A stretch of DNA of 54,028 nucleotides from positions 1 to 54,028 of the IMG/VR virus record IMGVR_UViG_3300021137_000021; one strand, 5' to 3'. Made by a program: the position numbers and the translations under genes. This DNA comes from a virus (lineage: Duplodnaviria > Caudoviricetes). Numbering within the stretch: position 1 is the stretch's first letter; the number at the start of each line of letters is the position of its first letter. Under the pieces are notes generated by a model. That model was not told the DNA's origin, did no database searches, and saw only the letters and a program-made list of their open reading frames with translations. This document shows positions 721 through 53,794 of this stretch, piece after piece.

Positions 721-1068
721 TTATTCACCTTGTTCATCGTGGCCCCCCACTCCCTTATTGTACATTGCATCAGTCAATTCATGAAAATGGTGCTCAAGGA
801 TGATGACATAGTCTTCCCCGTCTAAGTGGAAAGCTAGCACCGGTTCACGGCTATCTAGGATCGCCTCTGTGGTGATCTTATCTAGGATAGTTGACTGGAT
901 GCTGAAAGATTTCTTGCTAGTCCACTTGTGCTCAAAGAGATAGTGGTCATTCCGCACATCGCCCTTCCGGGACCAGAAGGCCCCAGAAGCAGCGCTGCGT
1001 GCCCCGTCAGTTAACTTAGCCAGCCTCTTCTCATGCTTGAGAGACTGCTTTTGACCCTCACTCTTCAT
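721..1068 (-). CDS. Holliday junction resolvase-like PD-(D/E)XK nuclease
   Basis: HEKRLAK...SGA...KGDV...FEHK motif arrangement; directly downstream of recA. Confidence 0.7.
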   Translation of the reverse strand: MKSEGQKQSLKHEKRLAKLTDGARSAASGAFWSRKGDVRNDHYLFEHKWTSKKSFSIQSTILDKITTEAILDSREPVLAFHLDGEDYVIILEHHFHELTDAMYNKGVGGHDEQGE

Positions 1069-2119
1069 CTGGGGCTTCCAGCATTAATGCCGGACTATTC
1101 TTAAGAGTATCCATAACAGCTGCACTGATCTCATCCCTGAGGTCAATCTCTTCTCTTAGAGAATCAATAAGAGCCTGAGAGCCCTGCCACTTACGGTCTT
1201 TGTAATACATCCAGCCGCCACGACGGTCTACGATACCATTGAGGATAGCCAGAGCAATGATCTCTTTGCCGGTGTCATAGCCTCCGCCGTTAACCGGACC
1301 ACCCTCTGCAAAGTAGAAGTCTAGGTAAGCAGTCTGCTGTGGGGGATAGGTCTTGTTCTTAATAGTACGGACACGGATGGTCTGCCCCACACGCCTCTTC
1401 TCCTGTCCGGTGCCTACCTCAAGCCAATCGTCACGCTTTACTTCGCAACGAACGCTGTAGGCGTAGTCTTTGCCAAGACCTCCAGGCGTAGTACGAGGAT
1501 CGCCGTGCATGACGCCAATCTTCATACGGTATTGGTTGATCATGATGCCCAAGACTGGGCGCTCTGATTCAATCAAATCACGCTTTGTAGCTGATGAAAC
1601 TTTACGGAAGAACTTGTTGGTGATTAATGCTCCTCGCCCCACAGTAAATTCTTCCATGTGCTTCTCATCTTCCGCACTAGGAACCAAAGCAGGAAGGGAA
1701 TCAATAACAACCATATCCACCGCTTTGCTTTCCATGAACTGAATAACTGCGTCAAATGCATCCTCCATACCATTAGTCTCTACAATGATTACACGCTCAG
1801 TATCAACCCCGCATAGTTCTGCGTACTCAGGGTCAAAGTCCTCGGCAGCAATCCAGACAGCTGTGAACTCTGGGTTCTTAGCCTGGTTGGCTGCGATTGT
1901 CTTAAGTGCTAGAGCTGTCTTGCCGTGAGATGCCTCACCTACAAGCTCAACCCATCGGTTCATAGGCCAACCCCCACCAAGAACTACGTCTAGGGTGAGT
2001 GAGCCTGTTGGGATACGGTTAGGAAGATTGACTTCGCTAGCACGTACGACTGTGCCAGCACCAAGCTTCTTGTTGATATTAGCTACTACCTTTAATGCTT
2101 CTGCATTTAGAACTGCCAT
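1058..2119 (-). CDS. recA: RecA recombinase
   Basis: IPTGSLTLDVVLGGGWP, Walker A GEASHGKT, VVIDSLPALVP, INQYRMKIGVMHGDPRTTPGG. Confidence 0.97.
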   Translation of the reverse strand: MAVLNAEALKVVANINKKLGAGTVVRASEVNLPNRIPTGSLTLDVVLGGGWPMNRWVELVGEASHGKTALALKTIAANQAKNPEFTAVWIAAEDFDPEYAELCGVDTERVIIVETNGMEDAFDAVIQFMESKAVDMVVIDSLPALVPSAEDEKHMEEFTVGRGALITNKFFRKVSSATKRDLIESERPVLGIMINQYRMKIGVMHGDPRTTPGGLGKDYAYSVRCEVKRDDWLEVGTGQEKRRVGQTIRVRTIKNKTYPPQQTAYLDFYFAEGGPVNGGGYDTGKEIIALAILNGIVDRRGGWMYYKDRKWQGSQALIDSLREEIDLRDEISAAVMDTLKNSPALMLEAPDEE

Positions 2120-35355: not shown

Positions 35356-36375
35356 CTAGTTGTTCTGGGACTGGTAGTTATCTAGAGTACTACCTTGGTT
35401 GTACTGAGAAGGTGAAAGAAGTATACCAAACTGTGTGGCAGTCTGGGTACTGGAGGCTGTATAGGTAATTGGGCTTCCTATAGGGGTTGTAAGGGAGTCA
35501 GAGTACGGGGTGACCGTAATTGTATTCCCGCCCGATGTAACGACCTTTAAGCTGGCAGCAACGGCTGATATGGCGGTACGTAGTACCGTTGTTACGGCAT
35601 TTGCTACAGACTGATAAACATAGACAAAGGCTGGGTAGCTGACGCTACCTCCCTGGCATGTTGAACAGCCACAGGTATGGGTATATGAGGAAGTACACTG
35701 CGTGTAATAGTAATAGTACGCACAGGAATAAGAGCATGGGGTGTAGGTAGAGCATACCCCATAATGGTTGTAGCAATATGCGACGTAGTATAGGTAAGAA
35801 CCTCCGCCGTATGTAGCGTAATAGTTACATATGGTACCTGTAATACATACGTAATATGAGGTTCCTCCACCCGTACATCCACAGCCAGCACCTACAGGTC
35901 CAACTGTCTGAGATGAAGCACAGGCGCTACATGTTTGACATCCACAGGTGTAGTAGTAGACCGTGTTAACTACCTCTTGGCCAGCTGCTACGCCAAACCA
36001 GTTACCGCTATCGGTAATCCACTGAGCAGCTCCAGTGCCGTTAGTTGTGGCACCAACAGTCTGGATATTGCTAGCGCTACCAGTATCAATAGCGGCAATA
36101 GAGTAGTTAGAGGCAGAGTCATTGGATTGAGCCTGGGATCCATTGGCAAACCAAGTACCTCGGGTAGCACTCCAAGCTTGCCCGCTATCGGCTGTGCCTA
36201 GATTGCCTGAGGTTGTACGGTTAAAGGAGTCAATGACAGAGGCCTTAAACCATTGCTTCCATTGACCGCCAACTTTAATAAAGGCTGAAGTAGCCCCATG
36301 CCATGCTCCGCTTACCTTTACAAGGATACCAATGCTTGTACCCTGTCCGCCATTTACATTAACTTTACCTGGCAT
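35356..36375 (-). CDS. Fibre/adhesin with Cys/Tyr-rich insertion (start MPGKV at 36375)
   Basis: VKVSGAW/IKVGGQWK anchor, DSFNR...DNY lectin-like sandwich interrupted by a ~100-aa segment with 16 Cys. Confidence 0.75.
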   Translation of the reverse strand: MPGKVNVNGGQGTSIGILVKVSGAWHGATSAFIKVGGQWKQWFKASVIDSFNRTTSGNLGTADSGQAWSATRGTWFANGSQAQSNDSASNYSIAAIDTGSASNIQTVGATTNGTGAAQWITDSGNWFGVAAGQEVVNTVYYYTCGCQTCSACASSQTVGPVGAGCGCTGGGTSYYVCITGTICNYYATYGGGSYLYYVAYCYNHYGVCSTYTPCSYSCAYYYYYTQCTSSYTHTCGCSTCQGGSVSYPAFVYVYQSVANAVTTVLRTAISAVAASLKVVTSGGNTITVTPYSDSLTTPIGSPITYTASSTQTATQFGILLSPSQYNQGSTLDNYQSQNN

Positions 36376-37307
36376 TACTGATACACAATCCAGATGTCTC
36401 CATCGTTGCCCTGGCCTGTTGTTGGTGCTGTTGTAGAGACCCATGTATTGCGGACAACGCCTAGAGAAGTTGAGGCGGCTGTTACTGAAGCATTTGCTGT
36501 TGCAAGATAAACTGTTGGGGTCTGCCATGAAAGGGCAGAACCATTGCTGCTAAGAACTGTACCAGCTCCACCAATACCCAAGCGACCTACAGCTGAGGCG
36601 CCCGTTCCCACCACAAGATCACCAGCAGCACTAACTGTGCTTAGTGGAATCTTTGTAGTATCTGTTGGGGTACCCCAAGCAACTGAGGTGCCGTTCATAA
36701 TAAGAGACTGACCGGCAGCCCCTTTAGCAAGGTTAGTTACGGTGGCATTACCTGAACCAATAAGAAGATCTCCCGCAGCTGTTACAGTTGAAAGAGGGAT
36801 CTTGGTATTGGCGTTATTATTGGCGGCAGTCGTAGCAGCCGTAAGGGTATTGTAGTCAGTGCTATTAACATAGAGAACGTTACTAGAACCCACAGCTGGA
36901 ATACCAGAGGAGTTAACATTGAATCCCAATACAGAGCCAGAGGTGTAGGTCTCAATAAGGTTAGCTGTTCCTGAGCCTACCTTTAATACAAGGCCTTTTG
37001 TAGAGCTAGTGGTAATAGTGCTTCCACCGGTAATGCTGACATATGGACTATTAGCCACACCATTTACCAAGCCATACTCAATGTTATTGAGGCGATCGCC
37101 CAAGGTAGACCAACCGGTAGTCTTAGCAAAAGTTCCTGAGTAGGTAGAAATCAGGGGGCTTTGATTGGTCAGGGCAGAACCAAGGGTTGTCTCAATAGCA
37201 GTAATCTCAACCTGTAGTGAGTTTACGTTATCAGCCAAAACGGTGCTGACAAGGTCAACCTCTGGTTGGTAGGTTTTAACCTGATTTGGATATGAAGCTG
37301 TTGCCAT
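36375..37307 (-). CDS. Fibre protein
   Basis: Two 'AAGDL..G.G.....L..G..G..L..NG....W.TP' repeats; C-terminal APTTGQGNDGDIWIVY. Confidence 0.75.
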   Translation of the reverse strand: MATASYPNQVKTYQPEVDLVSTVLADNVNSLQVEITAIETTLGSALTNQSPLISTYSGTFAKTTGWSTLGDRLNNIEYGLVNGVANSPYVSITGGSTITTSSTKGLVLKVGSGTANLIETYTSGSVLGFNVNSSGIPAVGSSNVLYVNSTDYNTLTAATTAANNNANTKIPLSTVTAAGDLLIGSGNATVTNLAKGAAGQSLIMNGTSVAWGTPTDTTKIPLSTVSAAGDLVVGTGASAVGRLGIGGAGTVLSSNGSALSWQTPTVYLATANASVTAASTSLGVVRNTWVSTTAPTTGQGNDGDIWIVYQ

Positions 37308-37338
37308 GGGACTCCTTCGTTATGGCCCTAACTATAGC

Positions 37339-37500
37339 CTAAGCTGTGGGGGTTTGTGGGGCTGAGTTGGCTGCAAGTAAGGCTTCGTAATCAGCCTTGA
37401 GCATGGAGGTATATTCCCCGTTGCCTCGGTCAATAATCGCGTAAGTTATTGCTACATTAGTCAAAGGGTCGGTTATATCTTGAAAGGTTACATTGTCCAT
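37339..37500 (-). CDS. Cassette A partner mini-protein, 53 aa (putative fibre chaperone; not in ORF track)
   Basis: MDNVTFQDITDPLTNVAITYAIIDRGNGEYTSMLKADYEALLAANSAPQTPTA; GCGGAG RBS inside the upstream SAEL codons. Confidence 0.78.
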   Translation of the reverse strand: MDNVTFQDITDPLTNVAITYAIIDRGNGEYTSMLKADYEALLAANSAPQTPTA

Positions 37501-37501
37501 A

Positions 37502-38707
37502 TTACAACTCCGCACTAAATGCTAGGTATCCGCCAGCAACATTGTTATTTAGCAATGTATAAGGGCGATACTGGGTCAAACCGCTGGCAACTGGTGCGTA
37601 TAATCTTGCACCGTCTATACCGCTTCCACCGCCAGGAATGGTCGGAGCAGCGTTGAGTGCAGTAAGCGTTACACCATCCCATAAAGCAAGATATGAAACT
37701 GTTGTTGGTGATTCAACCGCTGTTGGGCCTACACGCATTGGAACTGGGAAGAATATAGTTACTTCTGCCTGAGTTGTTGAATAAGCACTTCCTTGAGCCA
37801 AAGGTGGGTATAGGCCATTCAAAGAAGTTCCATTGCGCTTGTAGTAGTACCTCTGACAGGCATTTAACTCCCCCTGAAGTGTTCCGCCAGCGCGGGAGAA
37901 GGCAGTTGCTACTGAGCCTAATTCCAACTGAACCTGAGCAACCGTCAATGTTGCACTAGCCGACATTGCAGCCGTTGTTGTGAAATAAACACGAACTGTT
38001 TTGGCATTTGAAGGAATAGTTGTTGTCGCGGTTTTTTTCACAAGCGAGGATGTTGTTGATACTGTTTGTGTAAGCCCACTATAAGTTCCAGCATTCCAAG
38101 CAGCATCAACTGTTGTTGAATATTCAATGTGAATATCTACGCTTTGAGCAGCCGATGTAGCCAAATATGCGGAAACTGTAACTGTTTGACCAGCCAAGTA
38201 AATTGAGTTGAGCGTTTCAATTGCTTGTAAGATGATTGGGTTTCCGCTTGTTGCGCAAGTATAAGTTATTGAGTTTTGCGCGTTGCTAGGAACAAGGGAA
38301 GTATTTTGAGAAAATGTGCCGCCGCCAGAAAATGTGGCTACAACCCATCGGTCAGCCAAATAAACTCCAAGGCTTGAGGTAGAAGTTCCTCGTTGCCAAA
38401 TGTCAAAGTTTCCGTTGATGAGCCAGTTCTTGCCACCAGCCAAAGAAGGCCCTGCCCAAGCAACGCCTGTGCTGGCAGAAGAGTTTGCAACGAGTGTTGT
38501 GCCGTCAGCGCCTACGTTTAAAGTGCCTACGGTGCTAGCACCAGTGCCTAGAGCTAGATCGCCTTTGGCGGTATAGGTAGTTACTGTTGCAGCGTTAGCT
38601 ACATCGGCTACTGAGTGGGTATGTGGGCCTACGCCAACAGGTACCCATTGGTTATTGACCCCATCCCAAACGTAAGCGGGACGACTGGTATTACTAAAAT
38701 TTGCCAT
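37502..38707 (-). CDS. Receptor-binding/fibre protein, cassette A
   Basis: GKNWLINGNFDIWQRGT...ADRW, CBM-like sandwich, QLELGSVATAFSRAGGTLQGELNACQRYY, ends SAEL. Confidence 0.8.
   Translation of the reverse strand: MANFSNTSRPAYVWDGVNNQWVPVGVGPHTHSVADVANAATVTTYTAKGDLALGTGASTVGTLNVGADGTTLVANSSASTGVAWAGPSLAGGKNWLINGNFDIWQRGTSTSSLGVYLADRWVVATFSGGGTFSQNTSLVPSNAQNSITYTCATSGNPIILQAIETLNSIYLAGQTVTVSAYLATSAAQSVDIHIEYSTTVDAAWNAGTYSGLTQTVSTTSSLVKKTATTTIPSNAKTVRVYFTTTAAMSASATLTVAQVQLELGSVATAFSRAGGTLQGELNACQRYYYKRNGTSLNGLYPPLAQGSAYSTTQAEVTIFFPVPMRVGPTAVESPTTVSYLALWDGVTLTALNAAPTIPGGGSGIDGARLYAPVASGLTQYRPYTLLNNNVAGGYLAFSAEL
38475..38516. repeat. 42-bp direct repeat, identical to 44198..44239
   Basis: gcagaagagtttgcaacgagtgttgtgccgtcagcgcctacg in cassettes A and E; diverged copy near 41043-41083. 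Confidence 0.9.
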
Positions 38708-38880
38708 TATTCACCTGCCTGTGGTGTAGAAGAGTTGGCTGCAAGTGTGGCTAGATAAGCTTGATACATAGAATTAGAAGGGTCGGTGGGAATTTGCCAA
38801 CCATCTGAGCGAATGATTAACGATGTTGATGGCTGACCTGTCATTGGGTCAGTTGGGATTGTGTATGTGTATTCGTTCAT
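38707..38880 (-). CDS. Cassette B partner mini-protein, 57 aa (not in ORF track)
   Basis: MNEYTYTIPTDPMTGQPSTSLIIRSDGWQIPTDPSNSMYQAYLATLAANSSTPQAGE. Confidence 0.8.
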   Translation of the reverse strand: MNEYTYTIPTDPMTGQPSTSLIIRSDGWQIPTDPSNSMYQAYLATLAANSSTPQAGE

Positions 38881-39959
38881 TATAACTCCGCACTAAACTC
38901 TAAGTATGCTGATGTTGAGTTTTCGGTTCGCAGATAGCAACCATAAGCAACTGTTGCTCCCGATACTCCCGCAATTAAACCTGCTGAATCAGCAGTTGTT
39001 CCATCACCTTGTAAAATTGGAGCAGAAGTACCGATTGCAGAATCTCCTTGGCGAACTGTAAATGAACCAGAAGCGTTGTAAGCAGGTACGCCTCTCATCG
39101 TTGTTCTCAAGGGAAACACAAATTGACTTTGAGTTGTATTCAAATTTTGCCCAATAGCAATACGCCAGTATGCAGCCGCACTTCCAGCGGTAAAGCGTTG
39201 ATAGTACCTCTGGCAGAGGCTTAACTCTCCTTGGAGTGTGCCTGATGCTGTGGTGAAAGGTGTGGCTACCGAACCTGCTTCTAACTGCACGCCCCAAAAA
39301 TCTACATTTACGCCAGTTGTAGGCGTGTACAAGAGTAAACCTATTGAACTTCCTGCGCCAATAGTTTTTCCAACTACAGATGGCAAAGTTGTTGTATAAG
39401 TAATTCTTTGCCAAGAAGTTGTCAGGTTGTAATTTATATTTGTTGCCAAGACATTTGCGGACCCGCCTGAACCAAAGTATTGGTAAATCTGTGCTTGCGC
39501 TCCTGAAACTGCACTTGCGGCTTTAGCCCAAAATGAATAAGTAACCGTTTGCCCCGAAAATGTGCGCACATCCTCAACTGGTTGTTCAAAATATGTAGCA
39601 GATGTTGTGGCATTTACTCTTGCAAAATATGGAGCGGAGTATCCTGTGATTGGTGCTTGAGCGGCAGAGGGGGATGATGAGTAATCAAAGGCAATTTGTG
39701 TAACAGTCGTTGATGCTGAACCATAGTTATACACACGCCAGCGGTCTAATGTGTAATTCAAGCCCGTTCCACTTGGATTGACTGTTCCCCCACGTTGCGC
39801 CAAAGCAAAATCGCCATTGATGATCTTATTCTTGCCAGCAGCATACTGAGCGGGGTTCTCAAAAGCATAACCGTTACTTTGGTTGGTATCAACAGTAAGT
39901 ACTTGACCATTAGTACCTGAAGTACCTAAGATATTTGAGTTGTCTCTAGCTCTAGTCAT
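38880..39959 (-). CDS. Receptor-binding/fibre protein, cassette B
   Basis: GKNKIINGDFALAQRG...DRW; QLEAGSVATPF...QGELSLCQRYY; ends SAEL. Confidence 0.8.
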   Translation of the reverse strand: MTRARDNSNILGTSGTNGQVLTVDTNQSNGYAFENPAQYAAGKNKIINGDFALAQRGGTVNPSGTGLNYTLDRWRVYNYGSASTTVTQIAFDYSSSPSAAQAPITGYSAPYFARVNATTSATYFEQPVEDVRTFSGQTVTYSFWAKAASAVSGAQAQIYQYFGSGGSANVLATNINYNLTTSWQRITYTTTLPSVVGKTIGAGSSIGLLLYTPTTGVNVDFWGVQLEAGSVATPFTTASGTLQGELSLCQRYYQRFTAGSAAAYWRIAIGQNLNTTQSQFVFPLRTTMRGVPAYNASGSFTVRQGDSAIGTSAPILQGDGTTADSAGLIAGVSGATVAYGCYLRTENSTSAYLEFSAEL

Positions 39960-40139
39960 TTATGCACCTGCCTGTGGTGTAGAAGAGTTGGATACGAGTG
40001 TGTCTTTATTGAGGTATGCCTGATAATCGGCATTTGATGGGTCGGTTGGTATCCAAGCACCATCTGAGCGAACAATAACTTCCGTAGAAGGCTGACCAGT
40101 AAAAGGGTCAGTTGGGATTGTGTATGTGTAAGTTTCCAT
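39960..40139 (-). CDS. Cassette C partner mini-protein, 59 aa (not in ORF track)
   Basis: METYTYTIPTDPFTGQPSTEVIVRSDGAWIPTDPSNADYQAYLNKDTLVSNSSTPQAGA. Confidence 0.8.
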   Translation of the reverse strand: METYTYTIPTDPFTGQPSTEVIVRSDGAWIPTDPSNADYQAYLNKDTLVSNSSTPQAGA

Positions 40140-41866
40140 TACAACTCCGCACTTGCAACAAAGGATGCTTGAATGTTATATCCTGGGGTAGACCAGTTGC
40201 CAGAAGCATTGTAAAAATTATAACTTCCCGTACTAATGATAGAAGCACCAAAGGTTCCATTGCTTCCTGACGATGCAGTAAATGAACCGTTAGTAAATGT
40301 TGGCGCAGTTCGCATTGTTACAGGAAAATAAAACGCTCCGCCAGTAATACCAGCAGTGATTGTGTTTCCTGCCATCTGGTTTGTTGCTACATAGCAATAC
40401 CTCTGACAAGCGGCTAACTCTCCTTGGAGTGTGCCACCTGCTCGGCTGAATGGGGTGGCTACTGAGCCAGCCTCAAGTTGCAATCCCCAAAGTTGAATTG
40501 TTACCGCAGCCGATGTTCCGCAGTATCCATAAATTTGAACTTTGCTGCTAGGGCCGAGTGTCTTACCTGAAATAGATGGCATCGCTCCTGTGTAGGTAAA
40601 ACGCTGCCAAGTGGTAGTCAAGTTAAATGCTGGTTGTGGGCCAGCAACTTGAGTTGAGCCACCTGTTCCAAAGTTTTGATTGAAACCAAAGCCGTAACCA
40701 ATAGTTCCAGAAGTTACTCTTCCCCAGAATGAGAAAGTAAAAGTTTGTCCAGCGAGTGTACGCACATCTTCTATGGAGTGTGCCATATCGGTATATGAAC
40801 CGCCTGAGCTTTTGGCAATCTGCAAATAGTAAGCAGGTTCATATCCAGAAATCGGATTGCCAGGAGTAAATGCTTGCTGGCTTATCGTCATTGTTGAATC
40901 AGTACCGTTGAAGAATCTATCTGCTACCGCACCATAAGTTCCTGTGTAGGTAGTTCCACGCTGCCAAATATCCATACCACCGTTGATGACAAAGTTCTTT
41001 CCAGCCGCTACTGAAGGCCCTGCCCAAGATAAACCTGTGCTGGCAGAAGAGTTTGCCACGAGTGTTGAACCGTCAGCTCCGACATTGAGTGCTGTTTCAC
41101 TTCCGGATCCGGTTCCAACCAGGATGTCGCCCTTGGCTGTGAACTGAGAAAGCGGGATATATCTAGCATCAGATTGGGATTGGGTATATGTATTAGTAAC
41201 GCCCATAGTGATGGTGTTAAATACTTCTACGGTATCTCCAGTTACTGTGGCTTGAGTTAATGTGATTGAGGTACCGTTAGTGGCGGTGTAGTCAACACCC
41301 TTAACAATCAAGATACCATTGACATAGACTTCTTCATAACCCGCTGTATAGGCAAGAGTAGTTGTGCCATCATCTGCTAGGCCTGAGAGAACGGTAGTTC
41401 CTCCTGTAGGAGTTTTCTTCCAGCGTACTAGCTGTAGACCTTGAGTGTTTCCCGCCGTATTAACCCAGACCATACCAGGGGTATAGGTTGTTGGTTCTGT
41501 AGTCTGAGCAATGTTATTGCTAGACATCTGAACAGCTGGATAAGAGACCACTGTGAGGATATCTGAAACGGCAAGTGGGTTAGCTAAAACAATGGTAGAG
41601 CCGGTAGTGGCTGTATAGTCAGATCCACGTACTAGTAGAACACCATTGAGGTAGACATTCTCCCCGCCTAGTGGATAGGTAAGGGTAGTTCCATTATCGG
41701 AAGCTCCAGAGAGGGTAGTCTCCCCACCTGTCCCTGTGTGGGTCCAGTAGAGTTCATAGGCTCCGCCCAATACTAAGTTCCAAGTAGTACCGTCATAGGT
41801 CCATTGCCTACCGCCCTGGTAGATGGACGTGCCAGCTACTGGGGACGAGGGGAACGAAATGGCCAC
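40139..41866 (-). CDS. Receptor-binding/fibre protein, cassette C
   Basis: Two 'V(Y)LNG..L..G.DYTAT.G' N-terminal domains, then GKNFVINGGMDIWQRGT...QGELAACQRY...SAEL. Confidence 0.8.
   Translation of the reverse strand: MAISFPSSPVAGTSIYQGGRQWTYDGTTWNLVLGGAYELYWTHTGTGGETTLSGASDNGTTLTYPLGGENVYLNGVLLVRGSDYTATTGSTIVLANPLAVSDILTVVSYPAVQMSSNNIAQTTEPTTYTPGMVWVNTAGNTQGLQLVRWKKTPTGGTTVLSGLADDGTTTLAYTAGYEEVYVNGILIVKGVDYTATNGTSITLTQATVTGDTVEVFNTITMGVTNTYTQSQSDARYIPLSQFTAKGDILVGTGSGSETALNVGADGSTLVANSSASTGLSWAGPSVAAGKNFVINGGMDIWQRGTTYTGTYGAVADRFFNGTDSTMTISQQAFTPGNPISGYEPAYYLQIAKSSGGSYTDMAHSIEDVRTLAGQTFTFSFWGRVTSGTIGYGFGFNQNFGTGGSTQVAGPQPAFNLTTTWQRFTYTGAMPSISGKTLGPSSKVQIYGYCGTSAAVTIQLWGLQLEAGSVATPFSRAGGTLQGELAACQRYCYVATNQMAGNTITAGITGGAFYFPVTMRTAPTFTNGSFTASSGSNGTFGASIISTGSYNFYNASGNWSTPGYNIQASFVASAEL
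40412..40462. repeat. 51-bp direct repeat, identical to 42390..42440
   Basis: ggctaactctccttggagtgtgccacctgctcggctgaatggggtggctac in cassettes C and D; related copies near 37865, 39222 and 43573. Confidence 0.9.
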
Positions 41867-41922
41867 GGTTTACTCCTTCGGGAACTGCCTAATAATATCA
41901 GAAAGTAGGTGTATTACAGGTC

Positions 41923-42093
41923 TTAAGCTTGTGGCTGTGGGGCTGAGTTGGCTGCAAGTGTGGCTAGATAGGCTTGGTAGTCTGAGTTGGCAGGGTCGGA
42001 AGGAATGAACCAGCCATCTGAGCGCTGGATTACTGTGGTTGAAGGCTGACCTGTCATTGGGTTAGTTGGGATTGTGTAGGTATATTCGTTCAT
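41923..42093 (-). CDS. Cassette D partner mini-protein, 56 aa (not in ORF track)
   Basis: MNEYTYTIPTNPMTGQPSTTVIQRSDGWFIPSDPANSDYQAYLATLAANSAPQPQA. Confidence 0.8.
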   Translation of the reverse strand: MNEYTYTIPTNPMTGQPSTTVIQRSDGWFIPSDPANSDYQAYLATLAANSAPQPQA

Positions 42094-43055
42094 TATAACT
42101 CCGCACTAGCCGTTACATTGCTTCCAAAGTAAGCGCCATTAGTGCTGCTATTAGCAGTTCGCGCTTCATAAAATCCAGTTGGTGTTAAATCTGAAGCAGT
42201 ACCAGAGGATGCAGGAAAACCATTGTTATTAGTGCTTGTAAAAGTAACTGCTGGAGTGCCTCTCATTGTTACTGGCAATCTGCACCAAGCATAATAAGTT
42301 ACACCTGAAGTAACATTTCCCGAGAAAAAGATATTGTCATAAGCAGAATATCCATTTGCTCCGCTGAACCAGTAATACCGCTGGCACAAGGCTAACTCTC
42401 CTTGGAGTGTGCCACCTGCTCGGCTGAATGGGGTGGCTACCTTGCCCTGCTCTAGTTGTATTCCCGTAATTCGGACTGTAACGCCTGAGCCTTGAGCAGT
42501 GTCAGGAATAAAACCTACGCGCAATCCAACTGCATCTGATGGAACTGTAAATGTTCCTGTAAATCTTGTCCATCCAGAAGCGTTTGAGGCATTGCCAAAA
42601 GCGTTAATTGCCACATTGGTTGTTTGTGAGCCTAAAGCATCTGTGCTGTTTGAGTAATCAATGTAAGAATAAAGAATGCCAGCATATCCACCTGTTAATT
42701 TTACATAAGCAGATATAGTAAATGTTTGCCCACGCATAGGCTTTACAACTGCTTGCTCTAATGCTTGATAATACTGAGCAAACGCAGAAGCGCCACTTGT
42801 CACATATTTCAGCGCATACTGCACACCAATCGCAGATGGCAAATCAGAAGTTTCTTGAGAAATTGTTGTTGTTCCAATAAGATTTGCATACCATCTATCA
42901 GCCGTTGAATATGTCGCTTGAACAGTTGATGTTGTTGTGGCTCTCTGCCAAATGTCAAACCCACCGTTAGCCACATAATTTTTGCCAGCCACAAACGGAG
43001 CTACTGCCCCACCTGTGTTCTGCTCAACCGTTGAGGTTAATTGCGCTCTGCTCAT
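42093..43055 (-). CDS. Receptor-binding/fibre protein, cassette D
   Basis: GKNYVANGGFDIWQR...ADRW; QGELALCQRYY; ends SAEL. Confidence 0.8.
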   Translation of the reverse strand: MSRAQLTSTVEQNTGGAVAPFVAGKNYVANGGFDIWQRATTTSTVQATYSTADRWYANLIGTTTISQETSDLPSAIGVQYALKYVTSGASAFAQYYQALEQAVVKPMRGQTFTISAYVKLTGGYAGILYSYIDYSNSTDALGSQTTNVAINAFGNASNASGWTRFTGTFTVPSDAVGLRVGFIPDTAQGSGVTVRITGIQLEQGKVATPFSRAGGTLQGELALCQRYYWFSGANGYSAYDNIFFSGNVTSGVTYYAWCRLPVTMRGTPAVTFTSTNNNGFPASSGTASDLTPTGFYEARTANSSTNGAYFGSNVTASAEL

Positions 43056-43222
43056 TATTCACCTGCCTGTGGGATAGAAGATTGGAGTGTGCTTGCAGCT
43101 TGCATAGCATCGTAAATGCTTTTTGGCATTGAAGTAAATGTGCCGTCAGCCCGATTGATAAATGCGTATGAAACGGTTGTTCCGTCTGGTTGAGGAATAT
43201 CTTGATAAGTAATTGTGTCCAC
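43055..43222 (-). CDS. Cassette E partner mini-protein, 55 aa, GTG start (not in ORF track)
   Basis: MDTITYQDIPQPDGTTVSYAFINRADGTFTSMPKSIYDAMQAASTLQSSIPQAGE; homologous to the cassette A partner. Confidence 0.78.
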   Translation of the reverse strand: MDTITYQDIPQPDGTTVSYAFINRADGTFTSMPKSIYDAMQAASTLQSSIPQAGE

Positions 43223-44592
43223 TATAACTCCGCACTAAATCCTAGGTAAGCGCCAGAACTTGTATTTGTTATGTTGCCAATCTGACCTTGGCTCCAAGCG
43301 GAATCTGAACCGCCCTTTCCATATGTAACTCCTACGGCATTTGAATTGCCATAATATGAAGCACTCCAAGTTCCAGACGAATAAGAATTTACACCATAAG
43401 TTTGAACTTGCAAGCCTGAACTACCGCCATCAAGAACTAATGCAGTAGTCCTCATTGGTACTGGCGTTGGGATAGTAAAGAACCAGTTTGTTGTGCTAAC
43501 TGCGGGGGCAAATGCAAGAATAGAACCAGAAGAACCAGCAGCCGTATAACGGGTGTAATACCTCTGGCAAGCGGCTAACTCCCCCTGAAGTGTGCCACCA
43601 GCGCGGGAGAAGGTTGTAGCGGCTGCGCCTAGTTCAAGTTGCGCCCTTGACCAAGTGATGTAATCGCCATTGTTCATACCGTTTGCATAAAGAGCAATAC
43701 GCAAAGTTTTGGCAGTTGATGGGATTGAAAAAGTATAAACAATTTGCTGGAAAGAACCTGATGTAGTTACGGATTTGATTGCCGTTCCTGTCAAGGTTGT
43801 ATAAGTTCCAAGAAAAATATCGTCAGTATTGGTTGAATAGTCAATACCAATCGTAGGGGATTTGCCTGAAGTACCAGCAACCCAAGCAGACAAAGTAACA
43901 GTCTGACCCGCAAGCGGTAATGTGTTGAAAGTTTCAACCACTTGATACATTGTATTTCCAACTGAGTTGGCAGAAGCAGTTACGCGCAAGCCGTACTTCT
44001 GACCAGCCTGAACCAATGATGTATCTTGAGTGACTGTTCCAGCCGCATTGAAGTAGTTAGTCCAACGGTCTGCGGTGTATTGAGGTACACCTGCTGAGAT
44101 GCTGAAAGAAGTTCCTCTTTGCCAAATATCCATTACGCCATTGATGAGAGTGTTTTTGCCAGCAGCCTGATTGCCAGTCCAAGACACCCCACCACCAGCA
44201 GAAGAGTTTGCAACGAGTGTTGTGCCGTCAGCGCCTACGCCGAGGTTGGTAACGGATCCAGATCCGGTCGCAACGATTGTGTCGCCCTTAGCTGTAACAG
44301 TTGAGAGAGGAATTGCATTAGCAATAGCAAAAGTGTTTTGGGAATTGATAGTGACCAAATCACCAACTACCAGCGCATTGCTGAGTGTTACTGAGGTTCC
44401 ATTAGCGGCGGTGTAGTCTACACCACGTTCTAATAGAACCCCATTAACGAATAACTGCTCCCCACCTACAGCGTAGGAGAGGGTGACTGAAAAGCCATCC
44501 ACGCCTGAAAGCGTGGTCTCTCCACCCACGGCGGTATAGCGCCATGTACGAGGGCTATTCTGCGTGGAAGCTGTAGTGTAGGAACGAGTCAT
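43222..44592 (-). CDS. Receptor-binding/fibre protein, cassette E
   Basis: One 'VNGVLLERGVDYTA' domain, GKNTLINGVMDIWQRGT, QGELAACQRYY, ends SAEL. Confidence 0.8.
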   Translation of the reverse strand: MTRSYTTASTQNSPRTWRYTAVGGETTLSGVDGFSVTLSYAVGGEQLFVNGVLLERGVDYTAANGTSVTLSNALVVGDLVTINSQNTFAIANAIPLSTVTAKGDTIVATGSGSVTNLGVGADGTTLVANSSAGGGVSWTGNQAAGKNTLINGVMDIWQRGTSFSISAGVPQYTADRWTNYFNAAGTVTQDTSLVQAGQKYGLRVTASANSVGNTMYQVVETFNTLPLAGQTVTLSAWVAGTSGKSPTIGIDYSTNTDDIFLGTYTTLTGTAIKSVTTSGSFQQIVYTFSIPSTAKTLRIALYANGMNNGDYITWSRAQLELGAAATTFSRAGGTLQGELAACQRYYTRYTAAGSSGSILAFAPAVSTTNWFFTIPTPVPMRTTALVLDGGSSGLQVQTYGVNSYSSGTWSASYYGNSNAVGVTYGKGGSDSAWSQGQIGNITNTSSGAYLGFSAEL

Positions 44593-44596
44593 TTAA

Positions 44597-44839
44597 TTAT
44601 CCCTTGAGGGCTGCGATTTCTTCTGGGGTAAGGCCAAGCTTTGCAAGCTTGTCTGCTGCTGAAGCGGCTGCTGCTGCCTTAGCCGCATCTGCCTCTGCCT
44701 GAGCTGCTTGCTGAGCTGCAAATGCTTCAGATTGAGCCTTCTGAGCTGCAATCTCATCTGCTGTCATATCACGTGTAGTAGAGATGCTGGTTGAGCAATC
44801 TACTTCCACGACTTGTGGAACTGTGGCTGTATCTGCCAT
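44597..44839 (-). CDS. Small Ala-rich helical fibre-associated protein
   Basis: RDMTADEIA...KLAKLGLTPEEIAAL; AAGGAG RBS. Confidence 0.75.
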   Translation of the reverse strand: MADTATVPQVVEVDCSTSISTTRDMTADEIAAQKAQSEAFAAQQAAQAEADAAKAAAAASAADKLAKLGLTPEEIAALKG

Positions 44840-44865: not shown

Positions 44866-44888
44866 AAATTATACCACGTCTGGTATAA
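44866..44888 (-). promoter_or_regulatory. Extended -10 promoter overlapped by a palindrome
   Basis: Minus strand TGGTATAAT within TTATACCA-gacg-TGGTATAA. Confidence 0.6.
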
Positions 44889-44893
44889 AGCTG

Positions 44894-45391
44894 TTAGATT
44901 CCGTAGAGAGTGAATACAGAATATTGAGCAATATTTTGCCCCGATGTTGCCGTATCAAAACTAAGGGTTGTAATGGCAGCGGTACTAGACCAAAGTTCAG
45001 CAGAAAAAGATGGATATGCGGTGCTTGAATTGGCTTCTGCCACTACATCTATTAAAACTTGTTTGTAAGTTGAGATTGTATAATTAGGAATGTAAATACT
45101 GCAAGCGGTGAAAATATTTGCAGTATTAGTTCCATTTATTGTTGCTATGGCGCGATTGGTGCTTCGGTTTGAGCTTGTGCTTGAACCTGTTCCATTCCCA
45201 AAAGTATTAGAAATATTGGCTTGACTGCCATTAAAATACATACCTAAAGAATCATAAGTGCTATATGTGCTGGCAGCAGATATATCTATTTTTAAATCTG
45301 TGTATGTTTGAGGGATTGAAGAAAAAGTTATTGTTCCCAATCCACCTGAACCAACAACGACAGATGCAATTTTAGTTAGTGTATTAGCCAT
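44894..45391 (-). CDS. Beta-sandwich fibre-associated protein ('SSIPQTYTDL' paralog)
   Basis: ITFSSIPQTYTDL...IPNY...W..TAAIT...LYGI. Confidence 0.75.
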   Translation of the reverse strand: MANTLTKIASVVVGSGGLGTITFSSIPQTYTDLKIDISAASTYSTYDSLGMYFNGSQANISNTFGNGTGSSTSSNRSTNRAIATINGTNTANIFTACSIYIPNYTISTYKQVLIDVVAEANSSTAYPSFSAELWSSTAAITTLSFDTATSGQNIAQYSVFTLYGI

Positions 45392-53205: not shown

Positions 53206-53739
53206 TTAGTTAGATTGTTTAATGTACTTAATTGCGGCCTTTAGAAGTTCTATATTGTCCATAAACCTACCTAAGCCATTATTGCACTGATTACAAAGAA
53301 GTCCCCTTACTTCACCGGTATCGTGGGAATGATCCACACAAGCCTCTGAAGTATCAGAAAACGGAGTTTTGCAGATGGCACAGGATTCCTCCTGATCTTT
53401 CCACATCTCCTGAAACTGTTCCCACTCAATACCGTATTTACTTCTACGATTATGTGTAGATATGCATTTTCTACAGCTTCTAGAGCCATCCGATTTAATT
53501 CTAGTGTTCTCTTCGTTGTATTCATGACCATTTGCACAATGGGTCTTATTCTTATTCCAAGTTCCTATAGTATCTGATTCAGGTATTCCTTTACGCTTTC
53601 TTTGCCAATTCATTCGGCAAATCTTGCAAATTACCTTACCAGCTAATCTAGCCCCTTTGGGATATGTATAAGCAGTTTCTTCTGTAACCATATGTCCGTT
53701 AGAACATATACTGCCAATATTCAATTTTATTCTTGCCAT
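53206..53739 (-). CDS. Free-standing homing endonuclease, endonuclease VII-type domain (start MARIK at 53739)
   Basis: Two C.NGH...CxxC zinc modules, then KYGI...Q...CAIC...VDHSHDTGEVRGLLCNQCNNGLG. Confidence 0.88.
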   Translation of the reverse strand: MARIKLNIGSICSNGHMVTEETAYTYPKGARLAGKVICKICRMNWQRKRKGIPESDTIGTWNKNKTHCANGHEYNEENTRIKSDGSRSCRKCISTHNRRSKYGIEWEQFQEMWKDQEESCAICKTPFSDTSEACVDHSHDTGEVRGLLCNQCNNGLGRFMDNIELLKAAIKYIKQSN

Positions 53740-53744
53740 GTTGC

Positions 53745-53794
53745 CTCCGATACCTAAGAGTGAAGGTTTACCCCTCACCCTTAGTATATCAGAG
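53745..53794 (-). promoter_or_regulatory. RBS-sequestering hairpin containing an extended -10 element
   Basis: CTCTGATAT-A-CTAAGGGTGAGGG pairs with CCTTCACTCTTAG-GTATCGGAG, covering GGAG; TGATATACT lies in the 5' arm. Confidence 0.65.

Follow-up and report, generated by a model that had tools for sequence, protein, structure and literature searches.

Conserved neck and tail patches coincide with apparent exchange points in a tandem array of receptor-binding protein genes from a freshwater phage

Cassette swapping is a known route of host-range change. In the T-even phages, recombination involving gp37 and gp38 reportedly takes place at conserved motifs between the fibre anchor and the exchangeable receptor-binding part. 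Integrons are built from the integrase IntI, an attI site and cassettes with attC sites, which are imperfect inverted repeats that fold as hairpins. The PeSLs of T4-type phages are described as short border repeats that act as points of homologous exchange; they are said to carry expression signals, and the same accounts predict chimeric elements and mini-circles arising from recombination between direct copies (PMC2839356, Arbiol et al, 2010; PMC4122927, Comeau et al, 2014). Modules of a tail fibre and its cognate chaperone are reported as common to unrelated phages for Alteromonas phages A5 and V22 (PMC10579305), the Rin shufflon of Bifidobacterium prophages is described as having an armless tyrosine recombinase beside cassettes encoding receptor-binding proteins (RBPs) (PMC6109161), and phages of 'Ca. 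Nanopelagicales' are reported to have a variable genomic island around their tail-fibre genes (PMC10202952). Here we analyse an array of RBP genes, each followed by a small partner gene, in the virus record IMGVR_UViG_3300021137_000021 of IMG/VR (Duplodnaviria; Caudoviricetes). The window comprises the whole of this record, 54,028 bp. Within the array we concentrate on two short stretches of DNA, the neck, which lies inside the RBP genes, and the tail, which ends the partner genes. The closest known logic is that of PeSL modular shuffling combined with the classical anchor/head junction of fibres.

The neck and the tail are islands conserved at the DNA level, far above their flanks and including synonymous sites, and breakpoints of what would be recent exchanges among natural phages lie at both. 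We consider it probable, at roughly 70%, that they serve as homology patches for general recombination, like pairing with like, by which RBP units are swapped, and that the system is not integron-like. The array runs from 44.6 to 37.3 kb and contains five paralogous tandem RBPs in the order E, D, C, B, A; all genes of the window lie on the minus strand. All five RBPs have the C-terminus SAEL and match the tail-fibre family phrog_4492, three of them also matching CBM_4_9 weakly, and each stop codon is abutted or overlapped by a partner open reading frame (ORF) of 55–59 aa (pE, pD, pC, pB and pA). The genes and patches concerned are:

43222..44592, minus strand: RBP E, 456 aa; anchor of 124 aa, neck, CBM_4_9-like head and SAEL
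42093..43055, minus strand: RBP D, 320 aa; stand-alone head with the N-terminus MSRAQLTST, starting 27 aa before the AGKN box
40139..41866, minus strand: RBP C, 575 aa; anchor of 267 aa, neck and head
38880..39959, minus strand: RBP B, 359 aa; short N-terminus and degenerate neck
37502..38707, minus strand: RBP A, 401 aa; anchor of 70 aa, neck and head
39960..40139, minus strand: partner C (pC), 59 aa
41034..41065, minus strand: neck of RBP C, encoding TLVANSSASTG directly after VGADGS
38466..38497, minus strand: neck of RBP A, a match to the neck-tail motif
44200..44220, minus strand: neck of RBP E, without CACAGG, the AGGG codons coming next
39960..40005, minus strand: tail island of pC, encoding TLVSNSSTPQAGA and then the stop; the end of a Shine-Dalgarno (SD)-like CAGGCAGGTG is 6 nt upstream of the RBP B start (ATG)
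38707..38752, minus strand: tail island of pB, a chimera with the 5' half of the pD tail (TATCTAGCCACACTTGCAGCCAACTC) and the 3' half of the pC tail (AACTCTTCTACACCACAGGCAGGTG)
43055..43100, minus strand: tail island of pE, encoding STLQSSIPQAGE and then the stop; one codon is deleted and the ATG of RBP D (MSRAQLTST...) follows directly
41920..41965, minus strand: terminal-type tail of pD, encoding ATLAANSAPQPQA and then the stop; no RBP start is fused to it, and it is 91% identical over 56 nt to a relative (L009)
37339..37384, minus strand: terminal-type tail of pA, encoding LLAANSAPQTPTA and then the stop

An unbiased repeat search of the window recovered the five partner tails (46 nt each, 61–89% identical), three necks and three partner bodies, together with five copies each of the GTLQGEL..CQRY and AGKN/IWQRG boxes. 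The tail island of about 45 nt has a regular layout in which TL[PV]SNSS[TI]PQAGx is followed by the stop, an SD-like stretch and an ATG 0–1 nt after the stop; its 3' part, CAGGCAGGTG(A/C)ATAATG, takes in the last codons, the stop and the SD-like stretch that ends at the next start. The gene after it is usually an RBP beginning MSRAQLTST.., and the conservation usually runs into the first codons of that gene (MSRAQ). The initial annotation had held it against the generality of the motif that RBPs B and D lack a clear upstream copy, which is wrong in effect: between the end of the pC tail and the ATG of B there is 1 nt, and between that of the pE tail and the ATG of D there is none. By blastn the pC tail is 100% identical to that of two relatives, over 39 nt (L011) and 38 nt (L006), against an array background of ~65–80% (loci of relatives carry L numbers here, complete relatives G numbers). 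The exact sequence AACTCTTCWAYMCCACAGGCAGG is present in 82 IMG/VR stretches, or 66 copies once duplicates are removed, and across these 66 the onset of conservation is abrupt, at CACACTC, 13 nt upstream of the AACTCTTC core. Among seven copies whose loci were fetched by protein similarity, synonymous variation is seen at one of 12 tail codons vs seven of the eight codons after the ATG.

What lies on either side of this island is diverse. The 52 complete ORFs upstream of it fall into five clusters unrelated by BLASTP, with 48, 1, 1, 1 and 1 members. The 58 ORFs downstream also form five unrelated clusters: 49 SAEL RBPs, three pre80-like small proteins that likewise start with MSRAQ, three other fibre-like proteins, two small ORFs and one endonuclease VII. 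L006 has the same tail at the end of an unrelated protein of 82 aa, which follows a fibre whose head is different and non-SAEL. The partner body itself ends in ..NSDYQAYL, beyond which tails vary in kind and length or are absent, the tail being optional in the family. In an AlphaFold model of pC based on 46 sequences, residues 1–40 have predicted local distance difference test (pLDDT) values of 85–94, and the tail falls to 73 and then 50 with no secondary structure. The body (residues 1–44) is confidently modelled and the tail (residues 45–59) is, at low confidence, predicted to be disordered. Fusion of the partner to the next RBP by frameshift or read-through was considered and rejected; the tail frame runs into TAA and then TGA, and the RBP frame is itself closed by a stop 6 nt ahead of the ATG in two of three island variants.

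Two observations on other tails may be added here. Partner tails of the ETLVADSS (ADSS) lineage (..AEQSTP..) carry an island of their own that is locked at synonymous sites, GCGGAACAATCCACACC[GA], in 18 loci (e.g. L023, L025 and L076), with partner bodies of diverse kinds on one side and several unlike sequences downstream. Patches locked at the DNA level in the partner tail would thus seem to be general in this family. In L012, an ORF of the endonuclease VII family (positions 1290–1748; PF02945, E 3e-20) is placed exactly between the tail stop and the next MSRAQ RBP, which has its own canonical GGAG ribosome-binding site. The inserted ORF may be a free-standing homing endonuclease in the junction.

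To follow the neck beyond the window, motifs back-translated from the RBP alignment were used to collect 492 IMG/VR relatives confirmed by tblastn, of which 80 were kept. SAEL-type RBP ORFs number 89 in these 80 loci and the window, and 86 of them are followed by a partner ORF (35–100 aa, starting −8 to +40 nt from the stop). The neck has the consensus GADG(S/T)-TLVANSS-A(S/G)xG and lies between variable N-terminal anchors and variable heads; of 89 necks in IMG/VR, 72 are non-redundant, with anchors ranging from 18 to 834 aa and diverse heads, and G(A/S)DG(S/T) precedes every neck for which there is upstream sequence. Necks of the window are 90–96% identical over 53–60 nt to L030 by blastn. 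The paired occurrence that the initial annotation expected in homologous arrays was found: a tail core lies 695–1232 nt downstream of 32 of the 43 necks with at least 1.5 kb of sequence on that side, and the other 11 have variant tails.

The neck shares with the classical fibre anchor/head junction that it is conserved and in frame, and that one anchor is found with many heads and one head with different anchors. It differs in that the partner gene downstream provides, with its tail, a second joint beyond the fibre gene, so that whole stand-alone RBP genes can be strung together and not just tips swapped. As with the modules of A5 and V22, the head and its small downstream gene travel together across phage types, occurring in the window contig and in complete relatives of ~42–88 kb. 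Unlike in that system, the partner is only ~55 aa long and has no detectable family, and it is a candidate helper. One complete relative deserves separate mention. The contig of G002 (48.6 kb, rated complete; loci L127, L216, L142 and L229) has a neck-head-partner-tail unit at its start and a second, different unit ~42 kb on. The same MSRAQLTSM RBP comes after each of them, and the contig resembles a circularly permuted assembly that took in two alternative cassettes from a single population.

The initial annotation had suggested that the motifs mark cassette boundaries and are recombination joints, and for this the comparison of flanks between contigs provides support. At the tail, 49 copies with both flanks give 1176 pairs, of which 12 (8 + 4) have one flank that is 97–100% identical over ~390 nt and another for which blastn gives nothing comparable (no match, or one of at most 117 nt). 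The switch falls at the 5' edge of the island in L098/L118 and in L100/L103/L161, just after ATGAGTCGCGCACAATTAAC in L101/L103, and inside the island in L097/L145. At the neck, 59 copies give 1711 pairs, among which 31 have the same anchor and different heads and three the same head and different anchors. Taking the 12 tail and 34 neck mosaic pairs together, the matching flank is at least 92% identical. One head stands alone in L143 and L134 and is joined to a neck in L185, and here the similarity starts near the AGKN box and not at the 21-mer shared by neck and tail. The window holds a recombinant of its own, the pB tail, which is identical to the pD tail as far as GCCAACTC and, starting with AACTCTTCT, to the pC tail; we infer that it is the footprint of one crossover between two tails. 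These comparisons show recent exchanges among natural phages, as far as they can be read from contigs, to have breakpoints at the neck and tail patches.

The way in which the region assembles is informative as well. Contig ends fall within 100 nt of the motifs in 13 of 69 and 10 of 66 cases, vs ~2.3 and ~2.2 per 100-nt bin. In assembled contigs from four freshwater runs, unitigs end at the neck, tail and GTLQGEL boxes and depth spikes at these patches; one unitig extends exactly from neck A to the pC tail (38487–40004), and one loose end has the pC tail followed by an MSRAQLTSTV-type gene in place of RBP B. The joints listed have short sides (20–49 nt). A joint from neck C to the pC tail is absent among the 15 of 19 joints that are listed, whose sides are short and which likely belong to other phages sharing the boxes. 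One joint skips 37336–44743 (side of 22 nt, run X13), perhaps from an array-free relative; it is too weak and was not used.

Predicted recombination genes of the window, from PHROG matches, are:

1058-2119, minus strand: UvsX-like recombinase
721-1068, minus strand: Holliday-junction resolvase, adjoining the UvsX-like gene
53206-53778, minus strand: endonuclease VII

The predicted UvsX-like recombinase and resolvase are the phage's own general recombination machinery, and the exchanges would be carried out by these two or by host RecA. Recombination of the RecA type has a minimal homology of roughly 20–30 bp. The exact runs shared between neck and tail, of 8 and 9 nt, are below this and hence too short for an efficient substrate; like-with-like islands of ~45–65 nt would suffice. 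Pairing would then be of neck with neck and tail with tail, with the AGKN and GTLQGEL boxes within the heads as additional sites, and the use of such other boxes alongside like-with-like exchange points fits general homologous recombination. Co-infecting phages could in this way swap heads, partners or whole stand-alone cassettes. Unequal crossover between tails would add or remove members of the array, the chimeric pB tail being the probable trace of one such event. The patches themselves probably persist through roles in expression, the tail in translation initiation of the next RBP and the neck as a peptide.

This arrangement resembles the PeSLs in its repeated short border sequence (five tails and three necks in the window, 82 and 89 in IMG/VR, with unrelated flanks) and in that mosaic breakpoints coincide with the element, with which the chimeric pB tail and the mosaic pairs fit. 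Whereas the PeSL is an intergenic promoter plus terminator, the tail junction is mostly coding, consisting of the C-terminus of an ORF, its stop, an SD-like stretch and the next start, and it has neither a promoter- or terminator-like signal above background nor a stem-loop. Promoter-like and terminator-like sites in the region occur at the level of shuffled sequence, and none is at a tail. We found no paper describing the tail junction or SAEL-type arrays of RBPs and partners, a search that did not extend to supplements and does not prove absence.

Neck and tail also resemble one another. All coordinates and strings given for this motif by the initial annotation are present on the minus strand, those of the tails being 40001–39971 (pC), 38748–38718 (pB) and 43090–43066 (pE), and the pB copy has two mismatches within its first 21 nt. 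The pattern ACACTCGTNNNNAACTCTTCT (17 specified bases, at most three mismatches) hits the window five times, on the minus strand in every case, matching three necks and two tails (pC and pB). Shuffled controls had been named as a possible refutation, and they uphold the motif; 0.17 hits are expected (maximum 2) and none of 100 dinucleotide shuffles reaches five. Neck C aligned locally with the pC tail reaches a score of 19, where shuffles average 6.8 (z 8.9; equalled in 0 of 300 shuffles). Given T-L-x-x-N-S-S, use of the same five codons has P ~0.002 under the codon usage of the phage, one of the five being CTC, which makes up 10% of its Leu codons. The likeness is accordingly one of DNA, as had been proposed, reaching beyond the shared peptide. 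The further argument from reading frames holds in part. CACAGG does encode S-T-G in the RBP and P-Q-A in the partner, a consequence of a spacer of 5 nt in the neck vs 4 nt in the tail, but neck and tail do not differ in frame over the first 21 nt, which encode T-L-V-(A/S)-N-S-S, and it is just the last 6 nt that are read differently. Among relatives, only 36 of 70 necks have CACAGG after the motif.

That this resemblance is due to chance and has no biological meaning is extremely improbable. Apart from the shortness of the exact runs, a chance origin could draw on the fact that, of the four RBPs with necks in the window, C alone matches the tail of its own partner above chance (C/pC z 8.9; A/pA z 0.1; E/pE z −0.3; B/pB z 1.0). 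It would have to account, however, for five hits in place of 0.17, for the scores of relatives in the TLVANSS lineage (z 9.8 in L011 and 5.6 in L036, beside the 8.9 of the window), and for a motif whose place, across dozens of contigs, is always one of two structural positions. In the ETLVADSS lineage none of 17 loci shows the likeness at a threshold of p < 0.01, and it is thus not required by the system. Most likely it is not a working pair of sites; the 21 nt would instead be a lineage-specific vestige of the way in which stand-alone cassettes arose, or a short conversion tract.

The initial annotation went further and proposed that direct repeats flanking a head and its partner permit excision, integration or duplication of whole cassettes, integron-like in logic, or are scars of such events. 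The last of these, scars, describes the resemblance of neck and tail fairly; a working site pair does not. Excision or insertion of a head with its partner by recombination of neck with tail predicts two hybrid junctions, both of which have 0 exact matches in 2.9 million IMG/VR contigs, where the parental forms are found as 89 necks and 82 tails; the deletion-type junction is also without a match in JGI metagenome contigs, which contain at least 119 copies of the neck. None of the 52 complete ORFs upstream of tails is a long anchor ORF ending in a tail. The integron analogy is not supported either. The array is like an integron in being one-directional and bounded by a recurring short site, but unlike one in that the window has no IntI, no attC-like hairpins, no hybrid site junctions and several exchange patches in place of one. 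The search of the rest of the genome for a recombinase, which had been recommended, gave nothing within the 54 kb: neither PF00589 (tyrosine recombinases) nor PF00239 (serine recombinases) has a match in the record, which CheckV rates as 55% complete, and two complete relatives, G002 and G003, have both motifs and neither family.

More generally, a dedicated recombinase acting at an ACACTC(N6)AACTCTTCT core could be imagined to excise, insert or reorder cassettes in the manner of an integron or a shufflon, since the motif copies are direct repeats that bracket cassettes and the incompleteness of the record leaves room for an enzyme. Relatives do provide a candidate:

L006 2925-3719: tyrosine recombinase of 265 aa (PF00589)

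In 70 of the 376 loci fetched (31 when redundant ones are removed), a conserved 265-aa tyrosine recombinase (PF00589, E 1.8e-14) comes directly after the last partner and in its orientation, and an armless tyrosine recombinase is likewise described beside the RBP cassettes of the Rin shufflon (PMC6109161). The array is similar to Rin and to Min/Gin/Cin in having C-terminal RBP cassettes downstream of a constant N-terminal part, and to Rin in the armless tyrosine recombinase at the far end of the array in these relatives. It is unlike all of them in that every motif and cassette is in direct orientation, each cassette is a complete gene and not a silent tip, and the window has no recombinase. 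No inverted motif copies were found in the window, where all five hits are on one strand and no inverted repeat family involves the motifs, or in the 31 recombinase-bearing relatives, where 0 of 46 copies are on the strand opposite the recombinase. The nearest annotated relatives of the enzyme are mycobacteriophage integrases (~28–33% identity), and in the complete relative G001 it is the sole PF00589 match, both of which make it more likely, and in our view probable, that it serves that phage group as a lysogeny integrase. Among species-representative prokaryote genomes it has no close relative. As the breakpoints are, in addition, at several different patches including the AGKN box, and the sites do not fold (below), with the hybrid junctions missing and both recombinase families absent from the window, G002 and G003, we regard a site-specific system as very unlikely. 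Two related candidates were rejected: an attachment site shared by prophage and host, the tail pattern having 0 matches in 185,579 prokaryotes at one genome per species, and an attC-like or terminator-like structure at the sites, none being found in the folding and signal scans.

An explanation without any role for recombination deserves more weight, although we still think it unlikely. The tail would be simply the initiation region of the next RBP and the neck a peptide, with recombination incidental and the likeness a coincidence of linkers rich in Ser, Thr and Asn. The island does span about −45 to +15 around the ATG, with CAGGCAGGTG 4–6 nt before it, and junction RNA at the tails folds less than shuffled controls (z +1.11, +0.43 and +0.59; for the necks z −0.54 and +0.20). 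The separately locked island GCGGAACAATCCACACC[GA] in the 18 loci of the ETLVADSS lineage, which is unlike the neck of that lineage, and the missing likeness in its 17 loci would also be expected if only function mattered. In L012, on the other hand, the MSRAQ RBP after the endonuclease gene has a different upstream region with GGAG, so the island is not required for that gene, and elsewhere the same island stands ahead of unrelated genes. Identity of codons between neck and tail, with its rare Leu codon, is hard to reach by convergence, and the breakpoints in 12 recent pairs are at island edges. Constraint of this kind is largely compatible with exchange at homology patches, the two differing only on whether recombination matters.

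Several points weigh against our preferred explanation of homology patches. Synonymous conservation can be accounted for entirely by translation initiation, with breakpoints merely following homology. The tail copies were gathered with an exact 23-nt pattern, which inflates the apparent conservation inside that stretch, and the unbiased set consists of seven copies. No recombination event was observed directly, the material being assembled contigs, and the joints may come from other phages. Many of the contigs may derive from a few lake time series and were deduplicated by sequence only, so that the counts are not independent. Finally, strict replacement of a neck-to-tail unit with both outer flanks identical (SDS) was found in 0 pairs among 41 units, the nearest case being one MDS pair; four DSS pairs that came up in this comparison were artefacts of necks at contig starts and were discarded.

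A stronger version of exchange at the tail can be considered, which we hold to be quite improbable. The tail junction would be a selected, portable handle, a linker of ~45–65 nt kept letter for letter, that lets freshwater actinophages of different morphotypes capture, stack and trade RBP and partner genes. It would supply a disordered tail to any upstream ORF and the MSRAQ codons to any downstream gene, and trading would proceed through mini-circles or unequal-crossover intermediates. The 21-nt core might then be a trace of the first release of heads from their anchors or, alternatively, might still be used by the armless tyrosine recombinase at the array end of many relatives.

The contig itself belongs, by its predicted genes, to a myovirus-like phage, with PHROG matches to sheath, tube, baseplate wedge and hub, DNA polymerase, helicases and primase of a contractile-tail phage; a WhiB-like regulator suggests an actinobacterial host. 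The array is held wholly or partly in 24 freshwater metagenome runs, and a nucleotide search with it against 50,697 GenBank phage records gave no match. Searches for homologues of solved structure returned only weak matches for the RBP, to CBM/CenC-type and baseplate proteins (E ~1e-3), and nothing meaningful for the partner, for which family searches detected no family.

Upstream of RBP E, at 44597-44839, the window encodes an Ala-rich protein of ~80 aa (..AKLGLTxEE..) without a tail. It recurs in such arrays, with a TLVSNSSTPQAGN tail in L006 (1471-1716) and, in the downstream ORFs of L093 and L116, starting with the MSRAQ of the junction; no family match was found for it. The best sigma-70-like site of the region (10/12, extended TG) is at 44868-44897, just upstream of the pre80 gene, and the whole array may be one transcription unit. 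Downstream of the array are two further ORFs that overlap each other (35356-36528 and 36375-37307), neither of which matches a family; one (310 aa) is fibre-like and contains two GxxG..L..W repeats of the kind seen in necks generally, and the other (390 aa) has a low-complexity centre rich in Cys, Tyr, Thr and Gly. A distant backbone relative, L001 (12875-13111 and downstream; 41% identity in a 431-aa protein), encodes homologues of what lies upstream of the array and then has a pre80-like gene followed by other virion genes, with no RBP array, which is consistent with a hyperplastic insertion site.

The host range of uncultured freshwater phages is thought to turn over fast in variable genomic islands, and the neck and the tail, two short patches locked at synonymous sites, would be the seams of such turnover at nucleotide resolution. 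Heads, helper genes and whole RBP genes appear to have been exchanged recently at these patches, including between phages of different genome sizes. The patches would explain why assemblies break there, and as markers they could help to locate RBP cassettes in metagenomic data. For laboratory work with phages, they point to natural junctions at which receptor-binding modules might be swapped. The idea of the PeSL, so far one of intergenic regulatory cassettes, would in this way come to include a coding linker.

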